From Pirellulales bacterium (lineage in GTDB: Bacteria > Planctomycetota > Planctomycetia > Pirellulales > DATAWG01), in contig DATAWG010000076.1 in the NCBI GenBank assembly GCA_036267355.1, positions 60,291 through 124,290 of the forward strand: a stretch of DNA of 64,000 bases, given 5' to 3'. The stretch's first letter is position 1. Each line of letters begins with the position of its first letter. Positions 3,246-54,699 of the stretch are shown here, piece after piece. Below the pieces are notes generated by a model that was given only the letters and a program-made list of their open reading frames with translations, had not been told where the DNA came from and ran no database searches. The translations under genes were made by a program, and so were the position numbers.

Positions 3246-5153
3246 GTGCTCAGGCAGTTCGTGAATCATTTCGTCTACTACGATTTGGAAGAAGTGCTGG
3301 CCGACGACGTGCGTCGCGCACGAGCCGTTGTGCCGGGTGCGCGGGAATTCATTGCTCGCGGCACTCCGTGGCCCGAAAAATTGGAAGGACCACCGCCTTC
3401 CGAACTGTGGAACCCCCGTGAGCTCGAATATCAGCGGCGGCTAATGGATTGGATCGATCGTTTGTTCAAGTCTCTGGAGCATGGGCGAATGCAGTCGCTG
3501 CTCGCTTGCAGCGAAGGGTTTTCACAACTGGAGATATTGCGTTATCGGTTTCTTTTCGAGTTCTCGGAGATCGAGCAACGGCTGGCGGTCGCCGGTGAGA
3601 TGTATCGCGAGGGGGCGGAACATATTTCATGGATTGTCCCAGAATCGGCGTGCGCGACCATCCGGCAGCTGATGGGCGGCATCAATTCGCCGCACATCGA
3701 CGTGATCGGCGTCGAGCGGCCCGCCAAGTCGCGAAGCCGGCTTTGGCGACTCTTTCGTTCCTGCGGCCGACGCGTGATCGATGGCTTGATGAACAGCGCG
3801 GATGTGATTGCCCGCGACCCGCGAGACTGGGTAAAGTCGCTTGGTGAGTCGGTGGCAATCGTCGAATATTATCCGAACAGTGCGAAGGCGCTGATTCCCG
3901 TTGCCAAGGCGCTTCGCGAAGAACACGGCGTTGAGACGATTTGGATCGCCGCTCGAAGGCAAGTGAAAGTGGCGCTCGAGCGCCACGGCGTCGCTTCGAC
4001 CTTACTTCGCCGGTTGTCGCCAACAGCGAATCGACGGCCGAAACGTCTTCCCGCCGAGACCGCCGGACGTTTGCGGGAAGCAATCGGTGCTGACGCCGAT
4101 GAGAGTTTGTTCTTCGGAACCGGCTCGCTTTTTGGAAAGTCGTTGCTTGCTCCGGCGATCGTTGAAAAGCTTTCGGGCCTGTTGCAGGAATCGGCATTCT
4201 GGCTCGATTCGCTCACGGAAGCGTTCGCCAGGGTACAACCGCTCTGCGTCGTTTCGACCACATATAGCAGCATGGTCGGCCGCGCTGCCGCCCTAGCCGC
4301 GCGGCGACGGAATATCCCATCGGCGTTCGTGCAGCACGGCATGTTTCCGGACTACGACGTATTCACGCGATTCTGCAACGACGCGATCTTTGTTTGGGGG
4401 CACGCGAATCAGCGAACGATCCACCGCAACGGAATTGCCAATTCCCGGATCCGCGTTGTGGGCCCGGCGATTTACGACGAACTGATTCGGCGCAAGCGGC
4501 TATCGAAACGGCCTGCGACGGTTGGCCAAGGCAATCCACTCGAAATCGCTTACATGGCGTCGCGAACGGGCGGACAGGTCGTAAGCGTTTCGTTGGCCAA
4601 GCTGCACCTGATGGCGATTGTTCGCGCTGCCGCCGTCATTCCGAATAGCCGTCTCACGGTAAAGGTGCATCCGGCCGACTACACGGGGATCATCGATTCG
4701 GTCTTGCGGCAACATCCGCACGTGCGGATCGTTCGCGAAGGCAGCTCGCAAGACGTAACGCTTCAGTCGGATGTTGTGATCGTCGTATCCAGCACGACCG
4801 GCCTTGAGGCCTGCATTGCCGATAAGCCCCTGATCGTTATCGAGACCAAGGGGCTGTCGGAATATGGCCCCTACCGCCAATATGGAGCGGCGATACAGGT
4901 TGCGATCGACCACGTGGACGACTCCGAGCGTTTGGCGATCATCATTCGGCAGCTTTCGACCGATTCCAAAGCGCTTGCCGAGTTGGCCGAAGGGCGCCGG
5001 CGGTTGGTCGATGATCTATTGAACGGCGGCAGGGCGGATGCGACAGAATTGACCGCTCGGGCAATTGTCGAACTTTTTCGTGGCCGCTCCGAATCTAGCG
5101 AGGTGATCGCGGCTGCACGTGCGAAGGACCATGGCAACCGCTCTCTCGACTAA
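3246..5153 (+). CDS. Hypothetical protein with C-terminal GT-B / capsule-synthesis (KpsC/KpsS/TagF-like, HP-motif) region
   Basis: 635-aa ORF with a GTG start. C-terminal signature VKVHPADY...DVVIVVSSTTGLEACIADKPLIVIE. The N-terminal ~350 aa are not recognisable. Confidence 0.5.
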   Translation: MLRQFVNHFVYYDLEEVLADDVRRARAVVPGAREFIARGTPWPEKLEGPPPSELWNPRELEYQRRLMDWIDRLFKSLEHGRMQSLLACSEGFSQLEILRYRFLFEFSEIEQRLAVAGEMYREGAEHISWIVPESACATIRQLMGGINSPHIDVIGVERPAKSRSRLWRLFRSCGRRVIDGLMNSADVIARDPRDWVKSLGESVAIVEYYPNSAKALIPVAKALREEHGVETIWIAARRQVKVALERHGVASTLLRRLSPTANRRPKRLPAETAGRLREAIGADADESLFFGTGSLFGKSLLAPAIVEKLSGLLQESAFWLDSLTEAFARVQPLCVVSTTYSSMVGRAAALAARRRNIPSAFVQHGMFPDYDVFTRFCNDAIFVWGHANQRTIHRNGIANSRIRVVGPAIYDELIRRKRLSKRPATVGQGNPLEIAYMASRTGGQVVSVSLAKLHLMAIVRAAAVIPNSRLTVKVHPADYTGIIDSVLRQHPHVRIVREGSSQDVTLQSDVVIVVSSTTGLEACIADKPLIVIETKGLSEYGPYRQYGAAIQVAIDHVDDSERLAIIIRQLSTDSKALAELAEGRRRLVDDLLNGGRADATELTARAIVELFRGRSESSEVIAAARAKDHGNRSLD

Positions 5154-6045
5154 TTCCATCGGCCCGAGCTTGGCGAAATGCCCGGCTTGCCATGCGCCCT
5201 GGACGACCGCCGGTGCGGTTCGCGTTCCGCTTGGACGAGCGTCTGACGCGATGTTGACCGATATGCTTCGAAAGCAACTCCACGTTCTTGTTTACGAGCG
5301 CTGTTCGTTTTGCAATTCGCTCGTCGCTACCGACGAGCGACGCGATCCGCAGTTCCTGCAATCGATTTACGAGTTGTTGCCGGCATCGTATTGGCACCAT
5401 TTGAATCCTCAGGCTGGCTTGAACATCGCAATCGAAAAACAATTGGGCAAGCGTGGTTTGGTGCGGGGCGACCTTTGGGACGTCGGTTGCGGGAATGGAA
5501 ATCTTCTGAGCACTCTCGGCCGTCAGTGGCGCAAGCGCGGCATCGAGCCGGGCCGCCAGGCAGTGGCGGAGGCGAGGGCCCAAAATTTGGACGTGCTTCT
5601 CGGCACTCCCGCGTCGTTGCAATTGCGCGAGGTGGCGGACGCCGTTTTGCTCGTCGATGTCGTCGAGCATTTGCCGGAACCGGAACTCGAACTGCTTGCG
5701 ATCAAGCAGATGTTGCGACCGGGCGGGGCGCTCGTCGTATTAACCGGGCGCGCGGATGCGCGGACGGCCCGTTTCGCCGGACCGCATTGGTATTACCTGC
5801 ATTGCATCGGCCACGTGACAATTTTCAGTGCGAGCTCATTTCCGTTGCTGCTGCGCAAACTCGGATTCACCGATGTTGCCGTTTTTCGCGTGGAGCACCC
5901 GGGTTCGGTTGGGCTGCGTCGTTGGACGCAGCGAATCGGCGGCAACCTCTTGCGAAGCGCCATCGGAAAGGATCCGGCCGCGATGCACTACTACCGCGAC
6001 CATCAGCTCGTTCTCGCAACGAAGCCGCTTTCCAGCAACCCTTGA
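5131..6045 (+). CDS. Class I SAM-dependent methyltransferase with N-terminal zinc-ribbon
   Basis: Motifs LWDVGCGNGNLL, LLVDVVEHLPEP and MLRPGGALVV, preceded by CPAC...CSFC. ATG 5131 overlaps the upstream gene by 23 nt. Confidence 0.8.
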   Translation: MATALSTNSIGPSLAKCPACHAPWTTAGAVRVPLGRASDAMLTDMLRKQLHVLVYERCSFCNSLVATDERRDPQFLQSIYELLPASYWHHLNPQAGLNIAIEKQLGKRGLVRGDLWDVGCGNGNLLSTLGRQWRKRGIEPGRQAVAEARAQNLDVLLGTPASLQLREVADAVLLVDVVEHLPEPELELLAIKQMLRPGGALVVLTGRADARTARFAGPHWYYLHCIGHVTIFSASSFPLLLRKLGFTDVAVFRVEHPGSVGLRRWTQRIGGNLLRSAIGKDPAAMHYYRDHQLVLATKPLSSNP

Positions 6046-7406
6046 TGCATTCCATCGATTCACGCTTGACGCAGGTCGCTTCCGACAATGGGCCGGAAAT
6101 CGGCGAAGCATCGGCCGAACGCCAGCTTCGTGTGCTCTTCTGTTCTTGGTCGGAATTGGACATCGCCTCCGGGACGCCGGTTATCGTGTGCGATATGCTA
6201 AGGCACTTCTCCGACGGGAACGCCGAAGTTTTCACGGAAGAGAACCTCGACCAAAAGCGCCGCCGCAAGATATCGATTGACCACCCCGTCCGCAAGTTTC
6301 AGTTTCATACCAGGCTGTGGCCCTTTCTCCGCGGGCATCGGATTCGCCGCCGTTTGGCGCGAGCCGGCTTTCCGCTGCTGCTCGGCCAGATGGTCCGGCA
6401 TATCCGCCGATTCCAACCGGATTGCATGGTTGCGATCTACGCCCAACCGCACTGGATTCTTGCCACGTGGATGGCTTCGCGAATCACACGCGTGCCGCTC
6501 GTCTATCATGTTCACGATGCGTTCTTGGAAGCCAATGAGCGGCGAAAGAATTCGAGCTTTGCGAGTTGGCTGGAACGCAAGACGCTCACCTCCACCCGTG
6601 TCTTGGCGCTCGACGACAACATGGCCGACCATTACAAGCGTCGTTACGGCATCCAATGCACGGTTCTTCGCCATATCGTCGAGCATCGTCCGCTACCGGC
6701 CAAGCCCGGACCGCACGCCGGGACAGCCGCCACCGATGCGGCGGCCTTGTCCGCAGGGTCACGCACGCTCACGATCGGATTTGCCGGTGCGATTTATGAG
6801 AGCAACTTGCGCCAATTGACCGAGTTGAGCCAACTTGTCAACCAAGATCCCACGTTCCGTTTGAAGGTGTGGTCGGGCTCGTCTTTCGATACGAGCCGAA
6901 TTTGCGGTCCGAGGGTTGAAGTCGCTTTCGAAGCGAACTACGAGCGATTGCTCGCGAATATCGGCGACTGCGACCTGTTGTATCTTCCCTTGCACTTCAG
7001 CCCCGGGAAGAGCATGGCGGCAAATGCCATGTCGCTTTCGCTGCCCACCAAGAGCTTCGATTATTTACTGTCGGGCGTTCCAATCTTGGTCCACTGCCCG
7101 GAGGATTTTTCCCTATCGCGGTTCTTTGTGAAAAACCGTTGCGGATACGTATTGAACGATCCGCAGATCGAGGCCGTTCGCGAATGGCTCGACGCCTGGC
7201 GATCCGGGCAGCTTCCGCCTCCGGACGAAGAGGCTCGGCTGAAAACTTTGCAAATGCATTCCGCTGCGGAAAACAAGCGAATTCTGTGGCAAGTGCTAAG
7301 CGAAGAAATCGGTCGTAGCGGCACGACAAAGCCGGTGTCGCATCGCGATACCATGGATGAACTTCAACTTCACCGTCCGCCCTCCAAGGATTCCAGCCCC
7401 ACATGA
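6045..7406 (+). CDS. Glycosyltransferase (GT-B-like, family uncertain)
   Basis: ATG 6045 shares its A with the upstream TGA (TGATG). C-terminal segment LYLPLHF...[21 protein letters not shown]. The 698-aa track ORF from 5310 is only an in-frame upstream extension. Confidence 0.6.
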
Positions 7407-8473
7407 GCGTAGCAATCGTCACCGGTTCGGCCGGCTTGATCGGTTCCGAAACTGCAAGGCATTTCGCCGGCATCGGCATGGATATCGTAGGCGTCGATAA
7501 CGATATGCGCCGATATTTTTTCGGCGCTGATGCATCGACAACCTGGCAACGCGAAGCATTGCAACGGAATTTGGATCGACAATATCGGCACGTCGAACTC
7601 GATATCCGCGATCGCGACGGCATCGAACGCCTGATGAGCGAGTATCGATCCGACATTCGCCTCGTCGTTCACACGGCGGCCCAACCCTCGCACGACTGGG
7701 CGGCCAAAGAACCGCTGACGGATTTTTCCGTCAACGCGCTCGGCACGCTCAACATGCTGGAAGCCACGCGCCAATTCGCCCCCGACGCGGTGTTCCTGTT
7801 CACCTCCACGAACAAGGTCTACGGCGATACGCCGAATCGGCTTCCACTCGTGGAATTGGAATCTCGCTGGGAAATCGCCCCGGACCACACCTACGCCGAC
7901 GGCATCCGCGAAGACATGTCGATCGACCAGACATTGCACAGTCTGTTCGGCGCTTCGAAAGTCGCGGCCGACATCCTCGTGCAAGAGTATGGGCGGTATT
8001 TTGGCTTGCGTTCGGCCTGTTTCCGAGGCGGCTGCCTCACCGGTCCCAACCATTCCGGCGCCCAATTGCACGGCTTTCTGGCCTACCTCGTCAAATGTGC
8101 CGCCCGGCGGACGCCCTACACCGTGTTCGGATACGGCGGCAAACAGGTACGCGATAATATCCACTGCGCAGATTTGATCCGGGCCTTCGATCGCTTCTTC
8201 CATGCGCCGCGCTGCGGCGAGGTCTATAACATCGGCGGCAGCCGCTATAGCAATTGCTCCATGCTCGAAGCGATCGACATCTGCACGGAAGTGACCGGCA
8301 ATCATCTGGATTGGAACTATCAAGAACAAAACCGCACGGGCGATCATATCTGGTGGATCAGCAGCGTGGCAAAATTTCAATCGCACTATCCCGACTGGCA
8401 GCTAACCTACGACGTGCGTCGCATCATTCGCGAGATCTATGAGGCGAATCGAGAGCGCTGGGCCGCCGCCTAA
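7403..8473 (+). CDS. NAD-dependent sugar epimerase (extended SDR, CDP-paratose/UDP-sugar epimerase-like)
   Basis: [10 protein letters not shown] Rossmann motif and FGASK (YxxxK position). 356 aa. ATGA overlap with the upstream stop. Confidence 0.85.
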
Positions 8474-8649: not shown

Positions 8650-10605
8650 ATGTGCGGAATAGCCGGCATCTGGAACTGCCGCCCCGGCTTCGATGCCGAA
8701 CCGGCCGTGGGCGCGATGCTCGATGCGATGCAATATCGCGGCCCCGACGGCCGAGGCACGCTTGCGTTCGAAGGGGGGGCCGCGGGAATGGTGCGCCTTG
8801 CCCTGGTCGATCTCTCTCCACGCGGCATGCAGCCGATTTGGTCGGCCAACCGCCGCGTTGCGGTGCTGTTCAATGGCGAGATTTACAACTTCCGCTCCGA
8901 ACGCGATCGTCTTCTCCGCTCCGGAGTCGAGTTCCACACCGGAACCGACACGGAAGTGATCCTTCAACTCTACCTGGAGGACAACGACAACTTCGTCGAG
9001 CGCTTGCGCGGTATGTTCGCGATTGCGGTGTTCGATTGGCGCTCCTCGTCGGCCGGCGCGTTGCCGATGCTCACGCTAGTGCGAGGTCCCTTGGGGATCA
9101 AGCCGCTCTATATCGCCGCGATGAGCGATGATCCGCATGCCATCGCGTTCGCGTCCGAGGTGCGCGGCTTGTTGGCCGGAGGCATTGTACCGCGGCGTGT
9201 TGACCCGGACGGGCTGAGCGATTTTCTCGCCTGCGGATTCGTCGCACAGCCGCGGACGATTATCTCCGGCGTGCGAATGCTGGAAGCCGGCTGGTTGGAA
9301 CGGTATTCGCCTGGAGAGGAGGTCCGTCGGCGGCGATTCTGGCATCCACCGCCTTACCGTCCCCGCGCGGAAACGCTCGACGAGGCGGCTAGCCGCCTGC
9401 GCGGCATTTTGGAAGAGAGCATCGCGTTGCACGCCTTTGCCGACGCGCCGGTCGGCGCCTTCCTGAGCGGCGGCGTCGATTCCACGGGAATCGTCGGCCT
9501 GATGCGCAAGCATGTTTCCGAGTTGCGGACCTACACGCTTGCCTATCCCGACGCTCCACAGCGCGACGAATCGGAGTACGCAATCGAAACGGCCGCCCGC
9601 TTCGATTGCCGCAACACGGTGGTCGAAGTGCGCGGCAGCGAAATGCCCGACGTTTTGCCGGCGTTCGCCAGCGCGATGGACCAGCCGAGCTCCGACGGTT
9701 TGAACACGTGGCTGATCTCGCGGGCAGCAGCCGGCGATGTGAAGGCCGTGCTTTCGGGCATCGGCGGCGACGAATGGTTTTCCGGCTATCCTGTCACACG
9801 TCGCATGGCCTACTACGCCGTGCACCCGTTCGGCCGCGCCAAAGCCTTCGCCGGCACGGTGGCGGCAATGCTCACCGATTTGCTTCCCGAAGGAAAGATT
9901 CGCCAGCGGGCGTACAACCTCGCCATGCGTCGGTCGTCGCTATCGACTTGGCTGCATGCCCATTCGGTGTTTCGCTACGATCAAGCACGCCGCATGATCG
10001 GCCAGCCGGAAGACAATTCCGAACAAGTTCACGAGTTCGTTGACGCATTGACCGAGTTGCGCTCCGATTACGGCCGGGAGGGGCCTATCGGCCTGGCCTG
10101 TTTGTTGGATTTCCATTTCTATATGGGAAGCCAGTTGCTCCGCGACGCCGACGCCATGAGCATGTCGCATTCGCTCGAGTTGCGGACGCCGTACGTTGAC
10201 GTCGAGGTGGTCGATTTCGCCCGAAGTTGCCAAAACGACTACAAGCTCCGCTACGATGGCGGCTTGGACGGCCATTATTCGCATAGCGGAGCGAAGCGGG
10301 TGTTGATCCACGCGTTGCGCGATGTCTTGCCGCTGGATATAGCGCAGCGTCCGAAGCGAGGCTTTGCATTGCCGATGGTCCATTGGATGCGCAACGACCT
10401 TCGTCCGCTACTGATGGACACTTGCAGTCACGCCGCCATCGCTCGCCGTGGATTGGTGGATCCGGCAGCGGTCGCCCCGATGATGCACGGGGCCGAGGCG
10501 ATCTCAGCCAACCTCTATCCTCGTTTGTGGACGCTGATGCTGCTCGAATTGTGGTGCCGGGCGACGCTCGATGTTCCGGTGCGGGCGCCGGTGGCAAGCC
10601 GATGA
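8650..10605 (+). CDS. Asparagine synthase (glutamine-hydrolysing) family amidotransferase
   Basis: N-terminal MCGIAG (Cys2 Ntn nucleophile) and PP-loop SGGVDS. 651 aa. Confidence 0.9.
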   Translation: MCGIAGIWNCRPGFDAEPAVGAMLDAMQYRGPDGRGTLAFEGGAAGMVRLALVDLSPRGMQPIWSANRRVAVLFNGEIYNFRSERDRLLRSGVEFHTGTDTEVILQLYLEDNDNFVERLRGMFAIAVFDWRSSSAGALPMLTLVRGPLGIKPLYIAAMSDDPHAIAFASEVRGLLAGGIVPRRVDPDGLSDFLACGFVAQPRTIISGVRMLEAGWLERYSPGEEVRRRRFWHPPPYRPRAETLDEAASRLRGILEESIALHAFADAPVGAFLSGGVDSTGIVGLMRKHVSELRTYTLAYPDAPQRDESEYAIETAARFDCRNTVVEVRGSEMPDVLPAFASAMDQPSSDGLNTWLISRAAAGDVKAVLSGIGGDEWFSGYPVTRRMAYYAVHPFGRAKAFAGTVAAMLTDLLPEGKIRQRAYNLAMRRSSLSTWLHAHSVFRYDQARRMIGQPEDNSEQVHEFVDALTELRSDYGREGPIGLACLLDFHFYMGSQLLRDADAMSMSHSLELRTPYVDVEVVDFARSCQNDYKLRYDGGLDGHYSHSGAKRVLIHALRDVLPLDIAQRPKRGFALPMVHWMRNDLRPLLMDTCSHAAIARRGLVDPAAVAPMMHGAEAISANLYPRLWTLMLLELWCRATLDVPVRAPVASR

Positions 10606-10727
10606 TGGTGAGCATGGTGCCGCATATGCCGGTGCTGACGGCTGAGCGCGAAGCAACTCAACCCGAGTTTTGCGCGGCTGGCGGAAACGCCACGCGAGGC
10701 ATCAGCCCGGCCGATTAGAATGACTTA

Positions 10728-12659
10728 ATGGACCGAACGACGACTAGTCTTGATCCAGTTTCGGCGTTGTCGCAGCCTCGCGGGCTCGCCCCGGCCGCAT
10801 GCATGCGGGCCTCTGCGGCGAGCCGCAAAGCCCATGGCAAAGTGCTGGTTCTGGGCGACGGGATGACCTATTTCCTATCCGTCATTCGATCGCTTGGGCG
10901 CAAGCGGATCGAAGTGCATACGGCATGGTGTGCGCCGCGGTGCCCGGCATCGCGGTCGCGATATGTGTCCGCTTGGCACGCCCTGCCGTTCCCAGATGCG
11001 AGCGGTGGATGGAAGCCGGCTCTTTTGGAACTGCTGCGTCGCGAGCAATTCGATTTGGTGATTCCGACCAACGAACAGTCGATGCGTCCGTTGCAGCGGG
11101 ATCGCGGCGATTTCGCGGCGGCCGGTTCGATCTACCTGTTGGACGATCATGCGTTCGGCGTGCTGTTTGACAAGCGGAAAAGCGCGGATCTCGCTCGCTC
11201 GATCGGAATGTTCGTCCCGCGAGGCGCAATGGCAGCAGATCTGGCGGAGTGTCGCCGGCTTGGTGCTGAATATGCGTGGCCGGTCGTGCTCAAACCGCTA
11301 TCGAGCTTCGACGATGCCGATCTTTCGCAGCGGCGAGCCGTGGTGAAGGCCTACAACGATGAAGAGTTGGAAGGCGGCGCCCGGCGGTTGCTGGCGCATG
11401 GCCCCGTTCTGGTGCAAGAGTGCTTCGTGGGCACGGGCGTCGGCGTCGAGGTGTTGGCCTGTCACGGTGAGGTGTTGGCGGAATTTCAACATGAGCGCGT
11501 CCATCTACCGCCGCGTGGTGGTGCGAGCACCTATCGCAAGAGCGCGGCGATGTCGCCCGAGTTGCTGGAAGCGACGCGGCGTTTGGTCGCCCGGCTGAAT
11601 TACACCGGCGTCTTGATGGTCGAGTTCTTGGTGAATCGCGACACGCGCGAGTGGCGATTCGTGGAGACCAATGCGCGATTCTGGGGATCGCTGCCGTTGG
11701 CGGTCGCAGCCGGTTGCGATTTTCCATACTACCTCTACCGGATGCTCGTGGACGGTGAGCGACATTTTCCCCGGCACTATCGCACCGGTCTTTATTGCCG
11801 AAACCTGACCGCCGATTTGTATTGGGCGCACGACAATCTCCGCGCCAACCGCACCGATCCGACGTTGATGACGGTGCCATTGGCCCAAACGCTGCGAGAA
11901 TTGAGCCACGTGCTTTTGCTTCGCGAGCGGTCGGACACCTTGGTGTGCGACGATCCTTGGCCGGGCCTGGTCGAATTGGGACAGTTTGTTCGCGTGAATT
12001 CGGCGAAGTTTGCTCGGCGTGCGATGGCGCGAGCCGCCTGCGCGGCACTCGGCATTCCTGCCGTCCGACAGCGCGCGACCGCCAAAACTCGGGCCGCGCT
12101 CGAACGGGCCGAATCGGTGCTGTTTGTCTGCTTAGGCAATATCTGCCGTAGTCCGTTCGCGGAACACTACGCGCGCCGCGTGTTGCCGGCGGCGGTCGCT
12201 GTTCGCTCGAGTGGTCTGTATCCCCGGCCGAACCGCCCGAGTCCCGAGCCGGCCATCCTCGCCGCGAGCGAGCAGGGGGTCGATCTGTCCCGTCATCGAG
12301 CGGATGTGTTGAACGAAGAAAGCGTTGGCCGCTCGGATCTGATTTTCAGTTTCGATGAATCGGTGCATCAAGAAATTCGCCGCCGGTTTCCGGCGGCCCG
12401 CGGGAAGTTGCATCGTTTCGCCCTATTGGCGGACGACGGGCCCGTCGAGGTTCCGGATCCGTTCGGCGGATCACTTGCCCGCTTTCGAGTGGTGTATCGC
12501 CGGATCGCGGCGGTGTTGGATTCCGCCGCCGCGCGGCTTGCCGACGGCCGGCTGGAAGACGGATCGGGGATCGCTCCGTCGCAGGTTGCGCGGCCGAACG
12601 CGACGGCCGACGCTCGCGGGGCGGCAACTGATTGTGCGGCGGTTTCCTCTGGCTTCTAG
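10728..12659 (+). CDS. ATP-grasp domain protein fused to a low-molecular-weight phosphotyrosine-phosphatase domain
   Basis: N-terminal ~450 aa are ATP-grasp-like (KVLVLGDG..., WPVVLKPL, MVEFLVNRDTREWRFVETNARFWGSLPLAVAAGCDFP). The C-terminal ~150 aa carry VLFVCLGNICRSPFAE (CX5RS P-loop, 12129-12152) and a DPFGG Asp-loop. Confidence 0.8.
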   Translation: MDRTTTSLDPVSALSQPRGLAPAACMRASAASRKAHGKVLVLGDGMTYFLSVIRSLGRKRIEVHTAWCAPRCPASRSRYVSAWHALPFPDASGGWKPALLELLRREQFDLVIPTNEQSMRPLQRDRGDFAAAGSIYLLDDHAFGVLFDKRKSADLARSIGMFVPRGAMAADLAECRRLGAEYAWPVVLKPLSSFDDADLSQRRAVVKAYNDEELEGGARRLLAHGPVLVQECFVGTGVGVEVLACHGEVLAEFQHERVHLPPRGGASTYRKSAAMSPELLEATRRLVARLNYTGVLMVEFLVNRDTREWRFVETNARFWGSLPLAVAAGCDFPYYLYRMLVDGERHFPRHYRTGLYCRNLTADLYWAHDNLRANRTDPTLMTVPLAQTLRELSHVLLLRERSDTLVCDDPWPGLVELGQFVRVNSAKFARRAMARAACAALGIPAVRQRATAKTRAALERAESVLFVCLGNICRSPFAEHYARRVLPAAVAVRSSGLYPRPNRPSPEPAILAASEQGVDLSRHRADVLNEESVGRSDLIFSFDESVHQEIRRRFPAARGKLHRFALLADDGPVEVPDPFGGSLARFRVVYRRIAAVLDSAAARLADGRLEDGSGIAPSQVARPNATADARGAATDCAAVSSGF

Positions 12660-12684
12660 AATCTGCCGATCGATTGACGAACTA

Positions 12685-14301
12685 ATGCTTCGCTTGCTTT
12701 CCCAAATCCACGTCGTTTCGACCGCCGCGACCTTGCATTGGCTGTTGAGCATGTTGGCGTTTGTCGGTTTGTGGGCAGGGGAATTGTACTGTGTTCAGAA
12801 GAAGACGTTGATTTCGGCCCAAGACAGCAGCGAACGGTTTGTCCGCTGGTCGCCGCGGATCCGGCTTGCTCTGAATATCTGTTTCATCTTCGTGGTTTCG
12901 ACATTTCTGCCAAGATGGTGGCTGCTGGGAATATCGGTGATCGTGTTCCTCGTTCACTGGGGATTGATTAGTCATTATCAATACTTTTTGCGTCCGCTTT
13001 CCGCGCTATCGCTATTCCATAATTGGCGCGAAGGCGTGATCGCCGGAGGTTACACGTTTGGCGTGCGGCGCACGCGTCTGACATGGATCTTGGCCACGAT
13101 CCTACTCGTCAAGGCGGCGCTTCTGCTCACGATGCCGGCAGAATCCGGGATCAGCGGATGGTGGGTGAAAGGCGTCGGATTGCTGGCGCTCGTGGGATAC
13201 CTTGCGATTGCCGTCGTCGCAAGTTGGATGGACCCTTTGGAAAAAATCCGCACGACCCGCGGCTTTGGCCGCGTGAGCCTGATTCGCGGCTATTTCATCA
13301 CGTGGCTGGCCGAGTTTTATTATCTGGGGCGTCATGAGGTTTTGACTGGCGCCCTGCGCCAACGCGAGATCCGCCAGGATCATTTGTCGCCGGTCGAATC
13401 GCCGATAACGGTCCACAATCGGCTGATCATTATCCAAGTGGAAAGCCTCGATTTCAACGTTCTGGGATTCGAGATCGGCGGGCAGGAAGTGACGCCGTTC
13501 TTGAATCGCTTGCAGCAGCAGTCGCTCTTCTACCGCGTTGCGGGAGCGCGGCATATCGGCTCGGCCGATGCCGATTTCGTCATGCTCAGCGGCGTCATGC
13601 CTTCCACCCGCATCATCACCTACAATATTCCGAACTATCCTTACGAAAACACGCTGCCACAGTTCCTCTCGCAGTATGGCTATCGCACCGCCGCATTTCA
13701 CGGCAACACCGGCAATTTTTACAATCGGCGCGACGCATTCGAGAAGATGGGCTTGGCCGAAATGCATTTTCGCGAGGAAATGGTATTTCGCGATGGCCTG
13801 CGGGCGCAAAGCTGGGGCGTCGACGATCGCGATGTGCTCGATCTTTCCGCTCGGCGCCTGCAAGACGCGGGCGACGAGGAACGCATTTGCCACTTCATCA
13901 TCACGCTCACGACGCACACCCCCTACACGATGCTGCCGTCATCCGAACAGGAGCTGTTTGCCAAACCTCAATCGATGGCCCAGCACTATCTCAACAACAT
14001 GCGGTGGCTGGATCATCGGCTCCGCGATTATGTCGGTTCGCTGAAGTTAGCGACCGTGGTGATCTACTCCGATCATGCTGCCGATCCGGCGATCGGTCCG
14101 GAATTCCGGGCGCATTGGGACGGGCTGAAGGAATTCGTCCCTTGCTTCATTTTCAACACGGACGAAGATCTCGGGGCATGCCAGCAAACCAGCGAATCCG
14201 TCGCCCGCGGCGGTTCGCTAACGATGCTCGATATCAGCGGTTATTTGCGCAGCCAGGTGGCGAAGGCCTGTCCGATCGTCAATGCGGCGCATGGTGGTTA
14301 A
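12685..14301 (+). CDS. LTA-synthase / sulfatase-superfamily membrane protein (phospho-substituent transferase-like)
   Basis: Hydrophobic N-terminal block followed by IIIQVESLDFNVLG, GSADADFVMLSG, FHGNTGNFYNRRDAFEKMG, WGVDDRDVLD and ITLTTHTPY, matching LtaS/OpgB-type signatures. Start at the ATG after the upstream stop; the track ORF from 12355 is an extension. Confidence 0.8.
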   Translation: MLRLLSQIHVVSTAATLHWLLSMLAFVGLWAGELYCVQKKTLISAQDSSERFVRWSPRIRLALNICFIFVVSTFLPRWWLLGISVIVFLVHWGLISHYQYFLRPLSALSLFHNWREGVIAGGYTFGVRRTRLTWILATILLVKAALLLTMPAESGISGWWVKGVGLLALVGYLAIAVVASWMDPLEKIRTTRGFGRVSLIRGYFITWLAEFYYLGRHEVLTGALRQREIRQDHLSPVESPITVHNRLIIIQVESLDFNVLGFEIGGQEVTPFLNRLQQQSLFYRVAGARHIGSADADFVMLSGVMPSTRIITYNIPNYPYENTLPQFLSQYGYRTAAFHGNTGNFYNRRDAFEKMGLAEMHFREEMVFRDGLRAQSWGVDDRDVLDLSARRLQDAGDEERICHFIITLTTHTPYTMLPSSEQELFAKPQSMAQHYLNNMRWLDHRLRDYVGSLKLATVVIYSDHAADPAIGPEFRAHWDGLKEFVPCFIFNTDEDLGACQQTSESVARGGSLTMLDISGYLRSQVAKACPIVNAAHGG

Positions 14302-14302
14302 A

Positions 14303-15076
14303 ATGACGCATCGTGCAACCGTTTTCTTTCCAATGGCCGGCCGAGGGGCTCGCTTCGGCCACGTGTTCAAGCCGTTCTTGCCGATCGGTCAGGAAACATT
14401 CATCGAGGCGGCGGTGCGGCCATTCCGCAAGTGGGCATCGGCCGTCGAACGGCTCATCTTTGTTTTCCTCGAGGAACAAGATATTGCCCACCACGTAACG
14501 GCCCGGCTGACGAACATGTTTCAGGGTCTGCCGATCGCGACGGTCGTGCTGCAAGATCCGACGCGCGGTCCGGCCGAAACGTTGGTCCGGGGCGTCGCAG
14601 GAGCGCATGCCGTCGGGCCGGCCATCGTTTGCGATTGCGACCATTCGGTCAACGTGGATCCTCTGTTTGCATGGATCGATTCACCATCGGCCGAAGCGGA
14701 GGCTGCCATCCCGGTTTGGGATCTGACGGGCGAAAACCCGCAGGCATGGAGTATCGCCAGCGTGGAGCCGGACGGCTCGGTCACGGCGATCGCCGAAAAG
14801 CGATTTCCCGAAGGAAAGGGCGAACCGCTGGGAGTCGTCGGCTGCTATTGCTTTCGCCACATTGAGCAAATTGCCGATCAATGTGCCCGACGGTCGCTCG
14901 TAAACATCTCGGATGTGATCGGCGAATTGATCGCGGAGAACCGCACGGTCGCGGCCGTGCGCATCGAGGAAGCCGAGTTCTTTGGCGATCCCTCGCGATT
15001 GCAGAATTCTTTGCGGCTTCGCACGCCTGCTGCCGGCGACGAACGCGCCGAACCGCGTGAGAATGCCGATGGCTAG
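14303..15076 (+). CDS. Nucleotidyltransferase-like (GT-A fold) protein, stand-alone paralogue
   Basis: N-terminal FFPMAGRGARFGHVFKPFLPI resembles the sugar-phosphate nucleotidyltransferase G-loop. By eye roughly half its residues match aa 1-245 of the next-but-one gene. ATGs at 14282 and 14291 are alternative starts. Confidence 0.6.
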   Translation: MTHRATVFFPMAGRGARFGHVFKPFLPIGQETFIEAAVRPFRKWASAVERLIFVFLEEQDIAHHVTARLTNMFQGLPIATVVLQDPTRGPAETLVRGVAGAHAVGPAIVCDCDHSVNVDPLFAWIDSPSAEAEAAIPVWDLTGENPQAWSIASVEPDGSVTAIAEKRFPEGKGEPLGVVGCYCFRHIEQIADQCARRSLVNISDVIGELIAENRTVAAVRIEEAEFFGDPSRLQNSLRLRTPAAGDERAEPRENADG

Positions 15077-15803
15077 CAACCCGCCAATTCATACGAATAT
15101 CCACGAACATATCCACGTCTACGCCGACGGCGCCGTGCTCGATCAGATTCCTTCGCTGATCCAGCGCTTCAAGGTTCGCGGATTCACGACGAATCCGACG
15201 CTGATGGCTCAGGCGGGCATCCGCGACTATGAGACGTTCGCTCGTTCGCTACTCGAGTCGACCGGCGAATTGCCGGTGTCGTTCGAAGTGTTCGACGACG
15301 ACCTGGCGGGCATGCAACGGCAAGCCCTCAAGCTGGCCGCCTGGGGAAAGAGCGTGTATGTCAAGATTCCAATCACGAACACGCTGCGGCAACCGACGAA
15401 CGAACTGATCCGTGCGCTATCGCGGGAAGGTGTCAAGGTAAACGTTACCGCGGTGTTCACGCCGGAACAAATCGATAGCCTCGTCGATTGCTTTCCAAGC
15501 GGCACGCCCGGTGTGGTGTCGGTTTTCGCGGGCCGCATCGCCGACGCCGGGATCGATCCGGCTCCGATCTTGCGGCATGCCTTGCAGCGGTTTGCGGCGC
15601 AAGAGCATGTGCAGCTGTTGTGGGCCAGCGTGCGAGAAGTGTTCAACGTCGTGACCGCGGCCGAGGTCGGTTGCCAGATCGTCACGGTGCCGATCCCGAT
15701 GTTGGAGAAACTGAATTCGCTGGGGAAGGATCTGACGGAGTTTTCCTTGGACACGGTGAAGATGTTTCGCAAGGATGCCGTGGCTTCAGGTTTCAATCTT
15801 TAG
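15063..15803 (+). CDS. Transaldolase / fructose-6-phosphate aldolase family protein (TalC/FSA-like)
   Basis: FTTNPTLM, VYVKIPIT (Schiff-base Lys context), GVKVNVTAVFT. About 246 aa. Overlaps the upstream gene by 14 nt. Confidence 0.85.
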   Translation: MPMASNPPIHTNIHEHIHVYADGAVLDQIPSLIQRFKVRGFTTNPTLMAQAGIRDYETFARSLLESTGELPVSFEVFDDDLAGMQRQALKLAAWGKSVYVKIPITNTLRQPTNELIRALSREGVKVNVTAVFTPEQIDSLVDCFPSGTPGVVSVFAGRIADAGIDPAPILRHALQRFAAQEHVQLLWASVREVFNVVTAAEVGCQIVTVPIPMLEKLNSLGKDLTEFSLDTVKMFRKDAVASGFNL

Positions 15804-15806
15804 ATC

Positions 15807-17885
15807 ATGCCGACGCTCGCATCGCCGCTGACGCTGATCTTCCCGATGGCGGGGCAATCCGCGCACGAAGGGTTCAAATTCAAGCCCTTTCTCACCCTCG
15901 ACAAGGAAACTCTGATCGAGGCGGCCGTGCGGCCGTTCGAGAAATGGAAGTCGAGCGTGCGGCGGTTGGTGTTTGTCGTGCTGGAAGAGCACGATCGCGA
16001 TTACGGCGTCGCGGCCCGGCTGCATGAGCTTTTCTCGATGTGGCCGCATGATGTAATCGTGCTAGCGCATCCGACCGAGGGGCCGGCCATGACGCTGGCC
16101 GAAGCCGTGGCGCGCGGACGGATTGCTGGCCCCGCGATCGTGTGCGATTGCGATCATTCGCTGAATGTCGATCCGCTATTCGGCCGAATCGCGGAAGGGG
16201 CCGGCATCGAATGCGGCTTCCCCACCTGGAGCCTCCGCGGAGAAAATCTGCGGGCTTGGAGCGTGGCGGCTTGCGGACCGAATGGCCAGGTGGCGGCGAT
16301 TGCCGAGAAGCAATTGCCGGCGGCGAAAGGCGATTTCGTCGGCGTCGTCGGTTGCTATTACTTCGCACACGTCGAAGCAATCGCCGAAATCGTCTGCCAG
16401 CGGCGGTTTGCCTATCTCTCGACTGCGATTCAAGAACTGATCGCCGCCGGCAGCAAGGTGATCGGCGTGCCGATCGCGCGTGCCGAATTCTTCGGCGACA
16501 CGCGCGGATTGCTCCAAGCCAGGGCCCGGCGCGATCAATTTGTCGGCTCGATTTTTTGCGATCTGGACGGCACCGTCATCGAGCATGAAGCGTCGCCGCG
16601 ATACGATCAACCTCTCGTGATTCTGCCGGGCAGCAGGGAAAAACTTGCCGAATGGGTCGATGCAGGTTATCTCGTCGTACTCACCACCGCACGCCCGCCA
16701 TCCGATCAGGCGCCGCTGGAGCAAAGCCTGCGCGAGGCGGGAGTGGCCTACCATCGATTGATCCTGGGCCTTCCGAGCGGGCCTCGCTATTCGATCAACG
16801 ACCGCAAGCCGTCGGCAATCCTGGTTCCGCAAACCGTGGCGTATGAAGTGTCGCGCAACGAGGGGATTCAGCACATCGTGATCCCTTCCATGACGCCCAC
16901 GGTTCTCAAGCGCTTCCACGGGGCATCGCTCGCCGACACCGTGCTGGTGGAAGACGACGAGAAACTGTTCGTTCGCAAGCGGGTTCTCAAGCGCGATCAG
17001 CTCACGCTCGGCTATGCGAAGCTGCGAAACCAATACCGCACGATGGAACGGCTTGCGCAATACGGCAACATCGTCCCGGCGCTCTACGGCGAACACGATA
17101 ATTCGCTGGAATACTACTACGACATGGAATATCTGCCCAGGCATCGGCCCGTATCGCAACTCGATAGCGCCGAGCTGGGCGAAGCACTCGGCCGGCTGAT
17201 GACGTTCTTGCAAGACCGAATCTATGCCGTGAAAACGTCGACCAGTTGTATGGGCGAAGACTGGTTGCTGGCCCATTTTGCCCGCAAGATTTTTCCGAAG
17301 CTCGACGGCGTGCAGTCGTATCCCGCGCTCGCGAGATTGGTGAACGCCGAGCGAGTATGCATTAACGGTCGCAGTCGGCCAGGGTTGCGAGCGTTGCTCT
17401 CGACGGCTTCGAGTTCGCGCGTCGCTCGGTCGTTGGCGCCGAGATGGCTGTCGGCCGTCCACGGCGATTTGACGTTCGAAAACGTGCTCTACCACCAGGG
17501 CGACTTCCGAGTGATCGATGCCGATGGCGGCGACTTTTTGGACGCTGCCGAACTCGACATGGGAAAGATTTTTCAATCGCTCGTCGGCCGATACGAATTC
17601 TGGGCACACAGCGACGCCCCGCTATGCGAATTTGCCGACGATTCGAATATCGTCTTGAAGCGCGATTTTCCTCCGCCGGATCCGGCGGTGAAGGATCTGT
17701 GCGTGCGCCATTGGTCGCAGATCCTCCATGCCTCGGAAGACCAAGCCTACGCCAAGGGGCTGTTTTACATGGCGCTGCATCTGATTCGCATGATCCCCTT
17801 CCGCTTGCGCGTCAGTGAAGAACAAGCGTTGTATGCAATGTGCATGGCAACGGAATGGATGAACACGGCATTCGAGCAGCTTTAG
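15807..17885 (+). CDS. Tri-domain protein: nucleotidyltransferase-like + HAD phosphatase + APH/choline-kinase-like kinase
   Basis: aa 1-245 are paralogous to 14303-15076. HAD motif I FCDLDGTV (16560-16574) with GYLVVLTTAR. Kinase Brenner motif HGDLTFEN (17460-17483) followed by VIDADG. Confidence 0.75.
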   Translation: MPTLASPLTLIFPMAGQSAHEGFKFKPFLTLDKETLIEAAVRPFEKWKSSVRRLVFVVLEEHDRDYGVAARLHELFSMWPHDVIVLAHPTEGPAMTLAEAVARGRIAGPAIVCDCDHSLNVDPLFGRIAEGAGIECGFPTWSLRGENLRAWSVAACGPNGQVAAIAEKQLPAAKGDFVGVVGCYYFAHVEAIAEIVCQRRFAYLSTAIQELIAAGSKVIGVPIARAEFFGDTRGLLQARARRDQFVGSIFCDLDGTVIEHEASPRYDQPLVILPGSREKLAEWVDAGYLVVLTTARPPSDQAPLEQSLREAGVAYHRLILGLPSGPRYSINDRKPSAILVPQTVAYEVSRNEGIQHIVIPSMTPTVLKRFHGASLADTVLVEDDEKLFVRKRVLKRDQLTLGYAKLRNQYRTMERLAQYGNIVPALYGEHDNSLEYYYDMEYLPRHRPVSQLDSAELGEALGRLMTFLQDRIYAVKTSTSCMGEDWLLAHFARKIFPKLDGVQSYPALARLVNAERVCINGRSRPGLRALLSTASSSRVARSLAPRWLSAVHGDLTFENVLYHQGDFRVIDADGGDFLDAAELDMGKIFQSLVGRYEFWAHSDAPLCEFADDSNIVLKRDFPPPDPAVKDLCVRHWSQILHASEDQAYAKGLFYMALHLIRMIPFRLRVSEEQALYAMCMATEWMNTAFEQL

Positions 17886-53451: not shown

Positions 53452-53473
53452 CAGAAGGTAAATTTTGATCTCT

Positions 53474-54667: not shown

Positions 54668-54699
54668 TCCTTGGAAGCCGAGCGGAAAGGCAAGCGACA

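Follow-up and report, generated by a model that had tools for sequence, protein, structure and literature searches.

A widespread fusion of an ATP-grasp ligase with an LMW-PTP-type phosphatase, a candidate bifunctional enzyme of glycan decoration

A gene encoding an ATP-grasp ligase fused to an LMW-PTP-type phosphatase was found in a 64-kb stretch of DNA from a Pirellulales bacterium (the whole of the DNA analysed, referred to here as the window). The fusion is a real and widespread enzyme architecture and is the dominant state of its ATP-grasp clade. It is interpreted, with moderate confidence, as a bifunctional glycan-decorating enzyme that would form an amide bond and then remove phosphate from a pathway intermediate. 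Support for this reading comes from the dominance of the fusion, the invariant active sites, the adjacency of the two genes where they are unfused, an exclusive split of the phosphatase domains in a tree, linkage to a deacetylase, triple fusions that contain no kinase, the glycan-cluster contexts and a precedent in Campylobacter jejuni. Its most likely role is to decorate a polymer of sugars, not to regulate the activity of a tyrosine kinase, because a deacetylase almost always adjoins the fusion in polysaccharide gene clusters. The features of the fusion gene and its immediate neighbours are shown in Table 1.

Table 1 Positions in the 64-kb window of the fusion gene, its parts and the genes flanking it
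Feature	Position	Strand	Remarks
AsnB-type glutamine amidotransferase	8650..10605	+	Directly upstream of fusion gene
Whole fusion gene, 643 aa	10728..12659	+	Single uninterrupted frame; stop TAG 12657-12659
Alternative fusion-gene start, ATG (Met26)	10803	+	618 aa; start annotated in public record
ATP-grasp ligase module, residues ~37-400	10836..11927	+	Pfam, NCBIfam, alignment, Foldseek
Interdomain segment	11916..12107	+	Invariant E400, D403, D409, P412 (LLRERSDTLVCDDPWPGL), then two helices
LMW-PTP-type phosphatase domain, residues 463-611	12114..12560	+	LMWPc, PDB matches, pLDDT >90
P-loop CLGNICRS, residues 468-475	12129..12152	+	Nucleophile C468 (predicted), R474, S475
Arg503 codon, specificity ('variable') loop	12234..12236	+	Fused-clade comparison
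General-acid loop DPFGG, D577, residues 577-581	12456..12470	+	Alignment
C-terminal tail, residues 613-643	12564..12656	+	Low-confidence, probably disordered; unconserved among relatives
LtaS-like (glycerol-phosphate-transferase type) membrane protein	12685..14301	+	Begins 25 nt past fusion stop

The initial annotation described one open reading frame of 643 aa holding both domains and all LMW-PTP hallmarks (CLGNICRS, SSG and DPFGG), and on both points it was borne out: the frame is uninterrupted, each domain has Pfam matches, and the three motifs were located in-frame, SSG at residues 494-496. A public record from a Pirellulales MAG holds a 100 % identical protein with its start placed at Met26. 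Disorder is predicted for residues 1-31 and 613-643, and no transmembrane segment was predicted in the fusion protein. The AF2 model of the whole fusion has a pLDDT of 89.6 and a pTM of 0.81, which indicates a defined mutual packing of the two modelled domains, and two long helices (residues 411-440 and 444-460) in the interdomain segment bridge both of them.

The ATP-grasp module consists of a pre-ATP-grasp Rossmann-like portion (GKVLVLGDG...) and the ATP-grasp core. Residues 226-359 match Pfam ATPgrasp_Ter at 34.1 bits (cut-off 29.1), CPSase_L_D2 scores 23.6 bits (cut-off 19.8) on the fusion protein, and the CPS-like ATP-grasp models of NCBIfam span residues 38-366. An alignment of 39 sequences has K149, K189, E299 and E313-x-N315-x-R317 (ETNAR) as invariant residues, and the features that define the superfamily, namely the ATP-binding lysines, the Mg2+-binding E-x-N and the Arg that comes after it, are conserved. 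Foldseek placed this half with biotin carboxylase, CPS and PurK at a probability of 1.00, and with 2pn1 at a TM of 0.78; the PDB fold search returned only generic biotin-carboxylase/CPS/PurK matches, with no substrate clue among them.

The phosphatase half matches Pfam LMWPc over residues 464-596 (E 7e-22, 78.6 bits, cut-off 23.2). None of the residues C468, R474 and S475 varies among 39 diverse relatives, nor does D577-P578 in the 39-sequence alignment, and among the 116 fused representatives of the survey described below the P-loop motif is intact in 108 and the DP motif is present in 110. The grouping of this domain with Wzb or with ArsC had been put forward as a check, and by its sequence it is a canonical LMW-PTP and not an ArsC. 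Its best PDB sequence match is Wzb (2wmy, 62 bits), and the other leading matches are a Thermus thermophilus LMW-PTP (2cwd), YwlE (56 bits) and AmsI. ArsC identity was rejected, with a score of ~36 bits over the N-terminal ~80 residues only, and the two downstream redox cysteines of ArsC are absent, since C468 and C473 are the only cysteines of the domain.

The phosphatase domains of the fused clade carry a signature of their own, Arg503 plus Phe477. Arg503 is invariant in the fused clade (43/44) and unconserved in Wzb-type and other stand-alone LMW-PTPs, and position 500 in the specificity loop is occupied by polar residues instead of Leu or Trp/Tyr. A neighbour-joining tree places 45 of the 48 phosphatase domains associated with ATP-grasp in a split of their own, without any BY-kinase-linked member. 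Loss of the aromatic pocket residue was considered as a sign of a non-tyrosine substrate and discarded: of 44 fused-clade members, 42 have Y, F or W at residue 579.

The distribution of the fusion was surveyed in the 150 best 50 %-identity cluster representatives of the ATP-grasp clade. LMWPc lies C-terminal to ATP-grasp in 116 of these best representatives, always in the same domain order, so that the architecture, whose recurrence the initial annotation had wished to see checked, is common. The fused clade comprises hundreds of 50 %-identity clusters, from bacteria of many phyla living in soil, water and sediment, and extends over at least eight lineages (Planctomycetota, Gemmatimonadota, Acidobacteriota, Nitrospira, Krumholzibacteria and Alpha-, Beta- and Gammaproteobacteria). 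One close relative (P0013, locus L004) appears to be ATP-grasp only, with a phosphatase domain of 82 % identity in another frame; this split is most likely a sequencing error, because the AsnB and GT4 genes on the same contig are also broken. A frameshift or stop between the domains was ruled out, the sole split close relative being the one on this contig with several broken genes.

Where the ATP-grasp gene is unfused, an LMW-PTP gene directly adjoins it in four of the nine loci examined. The unfused pairs are convergent in L012 and divergent in L011, with the phosphatase upstream in L015, and in L013, from the cultivable Duganella sp. 1224, the LMW-PTP gene lies upstream of an Acyl_transf_3-ATP-grasp fusion. 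No LMW-PTP was present on the small flanks of the short contigs that carry the unfused ATP-grasp genes of L005 and L090-L092 or the unfused representatives P0124, P0128 and P0148. The surroundings of a lone ATP-grasp gene of 31 % identity (L014) are not those of a glycan locus, and this gene was excluded as a probable paralogue. Triple fusions add Acetyltransf_6 (FemAB-like GNAT; 6 of the 10 examined), GT2, GT4 or GINT1_N, and no kinase domain was found among the larger fusions examined. This comparative genomics supports the ligase and the phosphatase functioning together, as had been proposed at the outset, through the fusion itself, the adjacency in unfused loci and the separate phosphatase clade with its own signature.

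The contexts of the family that carry Pfam annotation are nearly all glycan clusters, and most loci, the window included, are large clusters of the Wzx/Wzy type in which a flippase and a Wzy_C protein are encoded together with numerous glycosyltransferases. A CE4-type deacetylase is encoded at 15 of the 20 ATP-grasp family loci and at none of the 69 control loci with stand-alone LMW-PTPs (p = 4e-13); the neighbours in L012 and L088 are examples of this partner. The CE4 HMM applied to the control loci was trained on the neighbouring deacetylases of the family, and CE4 proteins of other subfamilies may have escaped it there. The count of 15 includes a 330-aa family without earlier annotation or Pfam match (>6,000 hits), which is here given a CE4/ArnD-like deacetylase fold. 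When profiles were compared, this 330-aa neighbour matched CE4 weakly (probability 9.5 %), and the assignment came solely from the structure model, which Foldseek matched to the polysaccharide deacetylase 3rxz and ArnD 8t0j at E ~1e-9. Some databases already label this family 'deacetylase'. At two loci (L085 and L086) a GNAT gene is directly upstream of the fusion, and another (L003) has a compact set of GT4, deacetylase-like, fusion and GT2 genes that is surrounded by housekeeping genes and lacks Wzx and Wzy.

The AsnB gene directly upstream of the fusion in the window, which has two AsnB amidotransferases, is in the same position in the closest relatives (L001 and L004), and in L015 an AsnB gene is directly downstream of the pair. 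On the other side, the LtaS-like gene is probably co-transcribed with the fusion gene. It is conserved as a neighbour only in Pirellulales relatives, and its product was rejected as a functional partner on account of this confined linkage and its extracytoplasmic catalytic domain. WecB (above cut-off) and an NDP-sugar dehydrogenase are encoded 20-24 kb downstream of the fusion gene. The initial annotation had referred to a neighbouring uronate-forming dehydrogenase; a dehydrogenase is indeed present, but it is ~22 kb off and its closest match is a UDP-ManNAc dehydrogenase, and the product of the WecB/NDP-sugar-dehydrogenase branch is probably ManNAcA. UDP-sugar dehydrogenases occur in only some of the related loci. 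Also encoded in the window are one aminotransferase of the DegT family, with PseC/ArnB as its closest matches, and an APH-family kinase fusion. Neither was assignable to the formation of serinol-P or ethanolamine-P, and no genes for the supply of these compounds were recognised.

If the fusion decorates a glycan, it would do so as a soluble, cytoplasmic and bifunctional protein of the decoration pathway. From its fold and invariant residues, the ATP-grasp half would activate a carboxylate with ATP as an acyl-phosphate and join it to an amine, giving an amide bond. The LMW-PTP-type domain would then remove a phosphate ester from one partner or from a glycan intermediate, with Cys468 as the nucleophile and Arg474 and Asp577 as further residues of the dephosphorylation. 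Across the family, the CE4-type deacetylase would free the sugar amine, and FemAB-like/GNAT acyltransferases and glycosyltransferases would often join in. With these partners, the usual reaction is probably that a de-N-acetylated amino sugar is re-acylated, or a uronate amidated, with a phosphorylated small molecule, and that dephosphorylation follows. The amidation of a uronate with a phospho-amino alcohol, as put forward at the outset, is one candidate chemistry; the deacetylase, as the strongest partner across the family, and the FemAB-like domains argue no less for the acylation of a sugar amine set free. In the window, the amine or carboxylate partner would need to be supplied by the DegT aminotransferase, or by AsnB and the WecB/NDP-sugar-dehydrogenase branch.

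Several points count against this glycan-decoration reading. No clear supplier gene for a phosphorylated amine or acid was found in the window, the deacetylase of most relatives is absent from the 64 kb, and the unfused relatives L005 and L090-L092 show no LMW-PTP on their short flanks. The LMW-PTPs prefer aryl-, acyl- or N-phosphates and are poor on alkyl phosphate esters, for example serinol-P amides. The aromatic residue that the pocket keeps after Asp-Pro fits a phosphotyrosine-like substrate.

A rival reading is that the phosphatase acts as a Wzb-type regulator of a BY-kinase, or of tyrosine-phosphorylated biosynthetic enzymes (sugar dehydrogenase, initiating transferase), encoded elsewhere, with the ATP-grasp fusion only positioning it in the assembly complex; this is considered unlikely. 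It would account for Wzb and AmsI being among the best PDB matches and for a P-loop that, like those of phosphotyrosine phosphatases, has Ile where the arginine phosphatase YwlE has Thr, together with the aromatic residue of the Asp-Pro loop, and it agrees with a 313-aa BY-kinase-like ATPase 1 kb downstream of the fusion in L008 and a Wzz/GNVR protein 6 kb away in L003. In the window, a scan of the six-frame translations with custom HMMs for BY-kinases and Wzz gave no match, no Wzz, GNVR, AAA_31/CbiA or Poly_export domain was present in any large ORF of the 64 kb, and Wza was not found. The initial statement that no BY-kinase is in sight is therefore true for the window, but its discriminating power is poor: a BY-kinase lies within about 10 kb at 16 of 69 stand-alone LMW-PTP loci and at 1 of 20 family loci, a difference that is not significant (Fisher p = 0.1). 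A missing Wzc nearby is thus a weak argument, the scarcity of kinases near the fusions being statistically like that near stand-alone LMW-PTPs (p = 0.1), and BY-kinase proximity was abandoned as a discriminator after this 69-locus control (p = 0.1-0.34). What speaks against a Wzb-type role, besides the single kinase in the 20 loci and none in the window, is that an unfused phosphatase gene with enough flank adjoins the ATP-grasp gene and not a kinase, that the phosphatase domains form a clade apart from BY-kinase-adjacent LMW-PTPs with a different specificity loop (Arg503 and the polar position 500), and that the larger fusions are without a kinase domain.

It is rather improbable that the product of the module is a small glycoside, soluble or lipid-linked, such as an aminoacyl-glucosamine conjugate resembling mycothiol or bacillithiol, or a compatible solute. 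The order of events would be that a GT4 enzyme acts on a phosphorylated acceptor, the LMW-PTP dephosphorylates the product, the deacetylase frees the amine and the ATP-grasp enzyme adds an amino acid. Mycothiol biosynthesis (MshA, MshA2, MshB, MshC and MshD) is built from the same five activity types, namely GT4, phosphatase, deacetylase, ATP-dependent ligase and GNAT, and the compact four-gene set of L003, among housekeeping genes and without Wzx/Wzy, and the GNAT genes upstream of the fusion in L085 and L086 would fit such a pathway. The large Wzx/Wzy-type clusters at most loci, the window among them, argue against it, and the GT2 and GT4 triple fusions fit both readings and so do not discriminate.

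Least probable of all is a phosphatase that acts in cis on the ligase, either proofreading mis-formed acyl-phosphate or serving as a redox-sensitive brake, by analogy with glutathionylspermidine synthetase/amidase, itself a fusion of an ATP-grasp enzyme and a Cys-hydrolase. In vitro, acyl phosphates are hydrolysed by LMW-PTPs, which a disulfide between the two P-loop cysteines inactivates reversibly, C468 and C473 are both conserved, and the tight modelled interdomain packing and invariant linker motif fit communication between the sites; such a mechanism would, however, waste ATP, has to our knowledge no precedent among ATP-grasp enzymes, and, if obligatory, is hard to square with the divergent and convergent unfused pairs of L011 and L012.

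A more far-reaching form of the glycan-decoration reading is advanced only tentatively. The fused clade may be the first LMW-PTP lineage with a non-protein physiological substrate, a glycan or metabolite phospho-ester or possibly an acyl- or N-phosphate, and may work in a three-enzyme module with ATP-grasp and the CE4-type deacetylase that swaps the N-acetyl group of an amino sugar for an initially phosphorylated acyl or aminoacyl substituent in environmental exopolysaccharides. Literature searches on the ATP-grasp/LMW-PTP fusion or its partner genes found no paper. The routine annotation of an LMW-PTP in a polysaccharide locus is that of a Wzb-like tyrosine-kinase regulator, and if the domain is instead a phosphatase of biosynthesis, coupled with amide ligase and deacetylase, such annotations would be wrong for the whole family. 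The LMW-PTP fold would also gain a new substrate class, ATP-grasp, LMW-PTP and CE4-type deacetylase would constitute a previously unrecognised and widely distributed three-enzyme module, and a widespread decoration of environmental exopolysaccharides would be directly testable with one recombinant protein.

Among known systems, the closest ATP-grasp relatives are the PRK12767/PDB 2pn1 'carbamoyl-phosphate-synthase-like' proteins and PylC. The resemblance to 2pn1, for which we know of no function, amounts to E 2e-4 in sequence and a TM of 0.78 in fold, and PylC carries out amino-acid ligation in pyrrolysine synthesis; unlike the fusion, neither 2pn1 nor PylC has a phosphatase domain. On the phosphatase side, Wzb/Wzc (Escherichia coli K30 and colanic acid), AmsI and Ptp have the LMW-PTP fold, the CxGNICRS motif, the Asp-Pro-aromatic loop and a polysaccharide locus in common with the fusion. 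Wzb-type systems pair with BY-kinases, whereas the fusion has ATP-grasp, without Wzc or Wza in the 64 kb. The superfamily fold and P-loop are likewise common to the pI258-type arsenate reductase ArsC, and the DPFGG acid loop to the YwlE-type protein arginine phosphatases, which score comparably (56 bits). The P-loop Thr of YwlE is a determinant of its phosphoarginine specificity; the fused family has Ile472, nearly invariant, in its place. The mycothiol enzymes and the modules of this family are alike in activity types, but there are no orthologues (MshB is LmbE-type and MshC is tRNA-synthetase-like), and the contexts here are mostly polysaccharide loci. The initial annotation had pointed to a ligase-then-phosphatase pathway in C. 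jejuni HS:2, and its description was correct: the C-terminal part of Cj1438, Cj1438C, is an ATP-dependent amidoligase using serinol-P or ethanolamine-P, after which the phosphate is stripped by Cj1435, a separate HAD phosphatase, as shown biochemically (PMC11800397). The logic of the fusion would be alike, with an ATP-dependent amide to a phosphorylated partner followed by ester hydrolysis, in a polysaccharide locus (PMC11800397, PMC12409886). The C. jejuni phosphatase is a separate protein of the HAD superfamily, whereas here a Cys-dependent LMW-PTP fold is fused to the ligase; the C. jejuni capsule is made by an ABC-transporter pathway and uses no deacetylase, whereas the present locus is of the Wzx/Wzy type and a deacetylase is the main partner of the fused family. 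The likeness to Cj1438C and Cj1435 would thus be an analogy of logic only.

The ATP-grasp/LMW-PTP gene reported in the initial annotation proved to be a single, uninterrupted reading frame of 643 amino acids, with the P-loop CLGNICRS at residues 468-475, SSG at 494-496 and DPFGG at 577-581, as claimed. An identical protein recorded from a Pirellulales MAG starts at Met26 (ATG 10803). The Pfam LMWPc model matched residues 464-596 (E 7e-22; 78.6 bits, cut-off 23.2), ATPgrasp_Ter and CPSase_L_D2 both exceeded their Pfam cut-offs over an ATP-grasp core at residues 226-359, and NCBIfam 'carbamoyl-phosphate-synthase-like' ATP-grasp models covered residues 38-366; the defining features of both superfamilies are thus present. 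In an AlphaFold model (pLDDT 89.6, pTM 0.81) the domains are connected by two long helices and the protein is confidently folded apart from disordered residues 1-31 and 613-643, and no transmembrane segments were predicted in it. The ATP-grasp part is distant from all characterised proteins; among PDB sequences it is nearest to 2pn1 (E 2e-4), a functionally uncharacterised structural-genomics entry, with PylC second (E 0.01), and in fold it is similar to biotin carboxylase, CPS and PurK, the TM score to 2pn1 being 0.78.

The fusion was used to search 5.8 billion proteins, giving 791 matches, and nearly all of the best 120 of these are 550-630 aa long with both domains; their sources, where named, are Planctomycetota, Gemmatimonadota, Acidobacteria and Krumholzibacteria, and scanning genomes extended the range to Stellaceae, Porticoccus, Acidobacteriaceae, Nitrospira, Allosphingosinicella and one betaproteobacterium. 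When the ATP-grasp part alone was compared with 1.84 billion 50%-identity representatives (816 matches at E ≤ 1e-30), the phosphatase domain was present in 116 of the best 150, always C-terminal to the ATP-grasp, with the P-loop motif intact in 108 of the 116. Invariant in a 39-sequence alignment are C468, G470, N471, R474, S475, D577 and P578 of the phosphatase, K149, K189, E299, E313, N315 and R317 of the ATP-grasp, and the linker motif E400/D403/D409/P412. One close homologue, P0013 (locus L004), seemingly lacks the phosphatase, which is encoded in another frame (82% identity), and the AsnB and GT4 genes of that contig are broken too. We read this split as a sequencing error, so a frameshift separating the domains in all relatives was rejected, and the fusion is genuine. 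Such multi-gene frame breaks are typical of uncorrected long-read assemblies and give rise to false 'ATP-grasp only' database entries, e.g. P0012-P0014. The domain pair carries the automatic JGI label 'protein-tyrosine-phosphatase/predicted ATP-grasp superfamily ATP-dependent carboligase', and no published study of the fusion was found in the literature.

The fusion sits in a long plus-strand polysaccharide cluster, listed in the table in gene order. In the 692-aa product of gene 12, residues 15-122 form a MobA-like nucleotidyltransferase domain and residues 367-571 an APH-family kinase domain, with a weak match to Cof-type HAD between them (249-310), and no PDB relative of the protein was found; the transaldolase upstream exceeds the TIGR02134 cut-off and is unusual inside a polysaccharide operon. 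The module of nucleotidyltransferase, transaldolase and 692-aa protein could serve to synthesise an unusual sugar or an activated phospho-alcohol. The LtaS-like gene, of glycerol-phosphate-transferase type, is also directly 3' of the fusion in the related loci L001 and L004, which suggests extracytoplasmic modification of the polymer with glycerol-phosphate or a similar group. For both AsnB copies the closest model is the XrtA/PEP-CTERM amidotransferase, below cut-off, and a PEP-CTERM-anchored protein is encoded in the window; the cluster may be part of an exosortase-linked exopolysaccharide system. Given where the two domains begin within their overlapping long ORFs, the true starts of the first GT4 glycosyltransferase gene and the phosphoesterase gene are probably near 6050-6300 and 54850, respectively.

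Features of the polysaccharide cluster (numbered in gene order), other window genes and loci of relatives (L numbers)
Gene or locus	Feature	Coordinates	Strand	Remark
1	SDR epimerase/dehydratase		+	
2	Wzx-type flippase		+	
3	Capsule_synth-like protein		+	
4	Methyltransferase	5119-6045	+	Overlaps ORF of gene 5
5	GT4 glycosyltransferase	Within ORF 5310-7406	+	Domain begins only at residue ~334
6	Second epimerase		+	
7	AsnB		+	Direct upstream neighbour of fusion
8	Fusion	10728-12659	+	
9	LtaS-like membrane protein	12685-14301	+	Starts 25 nt past fusion
10	Nucleotidyltransferase	14282-15076	+	Second, beside that of gene 12
11	Transaldolase	14982-15803	+	
12	Nucleotidyltransferase/kinase fusion	15807-17885	+	692 aa
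13	GT4 glycosyltransferase		+	
14	GT2 glycosyltransferase		+	
15	Wzy_C protein		+	
16	GT1 glycosyltransferase		+	
17	NodU-like carbamoyltransferase		+	
18	Second AsnB		+	
19	PaaK-like ligase		+	
20	GT4 glycosyltransferase		+	
21	WecB		+	
22	DegT aminotransferase		+	
23	DUF218 protein		+	
24	NDP-sugar dehydrogenase		+	Closest: UDP-ManNAc dehydrogenase
	PEP-CTERM-anchored protein	46200-47078	+	
	HupE/UreJ-family ORF	53465-54667	+	Overlaps long ORF (region 53465-56181), Phosphoesterase (PF04185) from residue ~402
	WcaJ-type undecaprenyl-phosphate glucose phosphotransferase	61181-62602	+	Initiating; CoA_binding_3 domain
L012	LMW-PTP, ATP-grasp			Convergent
L011	LMW-PTP, ATP-grasp			Divergent
L015	LMW-PTP, ATP-grasp			LMW-PTP upstream, ends overlap
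L013 (Duganella sp. 1224)	LMW-PTP, membrane Acyl_transf_3-ATP-grasp fusion	~9919-12705		LMW-PTP upstream
L087	~330-aa protein	6940-7950		
L003	~330-aa protein	8983-9972		
L089	~330-aa protein	9769-10764		
L006	~330-aa protein	4348-5592		
L090	Unfused clade ATP-grasp (P0124)	1651-3024	-	Convergent with Big_2 + Metallophos phosphoesterase
L008	AAA_22 ATPase, 313-aa BY-kinase-like ATPase	11752-13860		1-2 kb downstream of fusion
L004	Frame change, ATP-grasp/LMWPc	~11386-11389		

The phosphatase domain aligned over its full length with Wzb (62 bits), the T. thermophilus LMW-PTP, YwlE and AmsI, and its initial assignment as an LMW-PTP is borne out; an ArsC-like identity was rejected, ArsC proteins matching at ~36 bits over the first ~80 residues only and the domain having no cysteines beyond the two of the P-loop. 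Ile472 in the P-loop is a phosphotyrosine-type residue, and after Asp-Pro 42 of 44 clade members retain an aromatic residue (Y, F or W). Arg503 (43/44) is not conserved elsewhere, Phe477 occurs in 39/44, and position 500 is polar in the clade, Leu in BY-kinase-linked enzymes and Trp or Tyr in other stand-alone enzymes. In a neighbour-joining tree of 117 phosphatase domains, one exclusive split holds 45 of the 48 that are ATP-grasp-associated and the other three, all unfused, group together; since distances are large and the bootstrap trees agree moderately (mean F 0.956), the tree lends moderate support to a separate split.

The absence of a BY-kinase, stressed initially, is true of the window, in which no Wzz, GNVR, AAA_31/CbiA or Poly_export domains were found and six-frame translations gave no match to BY-kinase and Wzz HMMs built from three Pfam-verified Wzc proteins. 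As evidence it is weak, because the same HMMs detected a BY-kinase in only 16 of 69 stand-alone LMW-PTP control loci from the genome scan (roughly ±10 kb), against a clear BY-kinase-like ATPase in 1 of 20 ATP-grasp-associated loci (L008, 1 kb downstream), and the difference is not significant (p = 0.1; 0.34 when L003, with a Wzz/GNVR protein, is counted). L008, from an Acidobacteriaceae MAG, is the sole family locus with a nearby kinase, its 313-aa ATPase scoring 247 bits to the kinase HMM.

Discriminating evidence, unlike the missing kinase, comes from unfused adjacency, a deacetylase partner, larger fusions and glycan contexts. In four unfused loci, each differently arranged, an LMW-PTP gene directly adjoins a separate ATP-grasp gene (genes of L005-L015 are our greedy ORF calls, and most loci are from MAGs). 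L013 shows a further architecture of the pair, in a cultivated strain that might be used for genetics; the phosphoesterase of L090 could be a phosphatase of another kind standing in for the LMW-PTP, or simply an unrelated neighbour. A CE4 polysaccharide deacetylase directly adjoins the pair in L008, L009, L012, L015 and L088 and is nearby in L001, L004, L007, L011, L085 and L086, and an unannotated ~330-aa protein takes the adjacent place in L003, L006, L087 and L089. This family has >6,000 members, a few source-named 'deacetylase', no match in Pfam or NCBIfam, and invariant TIDTEGD, HxH and HSSE motifs. A CE4/ArnD-like deacetylase fold is predicted for it, as a structure model of pLDDT 90.8 gave matches at E ~1e-9 to ArnD 8t0j and polysaccharide deacetylase 3rxz. 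Across the two homologue lists, five pairs of entries, P0068/P0264, P0111/P0265, P0074/P0376, P0040/P0312 and P0117/P0331, have equally long longest contigs. Deacetylases of either kind occur in 15/20 loci against 0/69 stand-alone LMW-PTP loci (p = 4e-13, with a CE4 HMM built from these same neighbours) and in 0/16 BY-kinase loci; none was found in the window by tblastn or HMM searches. Among ten longer representatives, six have gained Acetyltransf_6 (FemAB/CelD-like) at one end or the other and four a GT2, GT4, GINT1_N or unknown domain; none of the ten has gained a kinase domain. Annotated contexts are nearly all glycan clusters.

We infer a ligase-then-phosphatase glycan decoration that has recruited an LMW-PTP and is partnered by a deacetylase, in which the ATP-grasp would form an amide bond via an acyl-phosphate, the phosphatase would strip phosphate from a pathway intermediate, and the deacetylase would, in most members, provide a free sugar amine. 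Across the family, the association with deacetylases and FemAB-like domains speaks for sugar-amine acylation rather than uronate amidation; with no deacetylase in the window and AsnB as direct neighbour, the uronate variant may apply at this locus. The chief argument against this mechanism is that alkyl phosphate esters are poor LMW-PTP substrates, so the phosphorylated species may be unusual, or the phosphatase may be of the Wzb type, regulating a BY-kinase. In the window the fusion lacks the kinase linkage that is the genetic criterion for Wzb. The glycan-decoration reading has a parallel in the C. jejuni HS:2 capsule, where, as initially described, Cj1438C uses ATP to amidate GlcA with serinol-P or ethanolamine-P and the HAD phosphatase Cj1435 acts afterwards, a sequence demonstrated biochemically (PMC11800397, PMC12409886). 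The likeness is one of ligase-then-phosphatase logic alone: the phosphatase of the fusion has a different fold from the HAD enzyme Cj1435 and is fused to its ligase.
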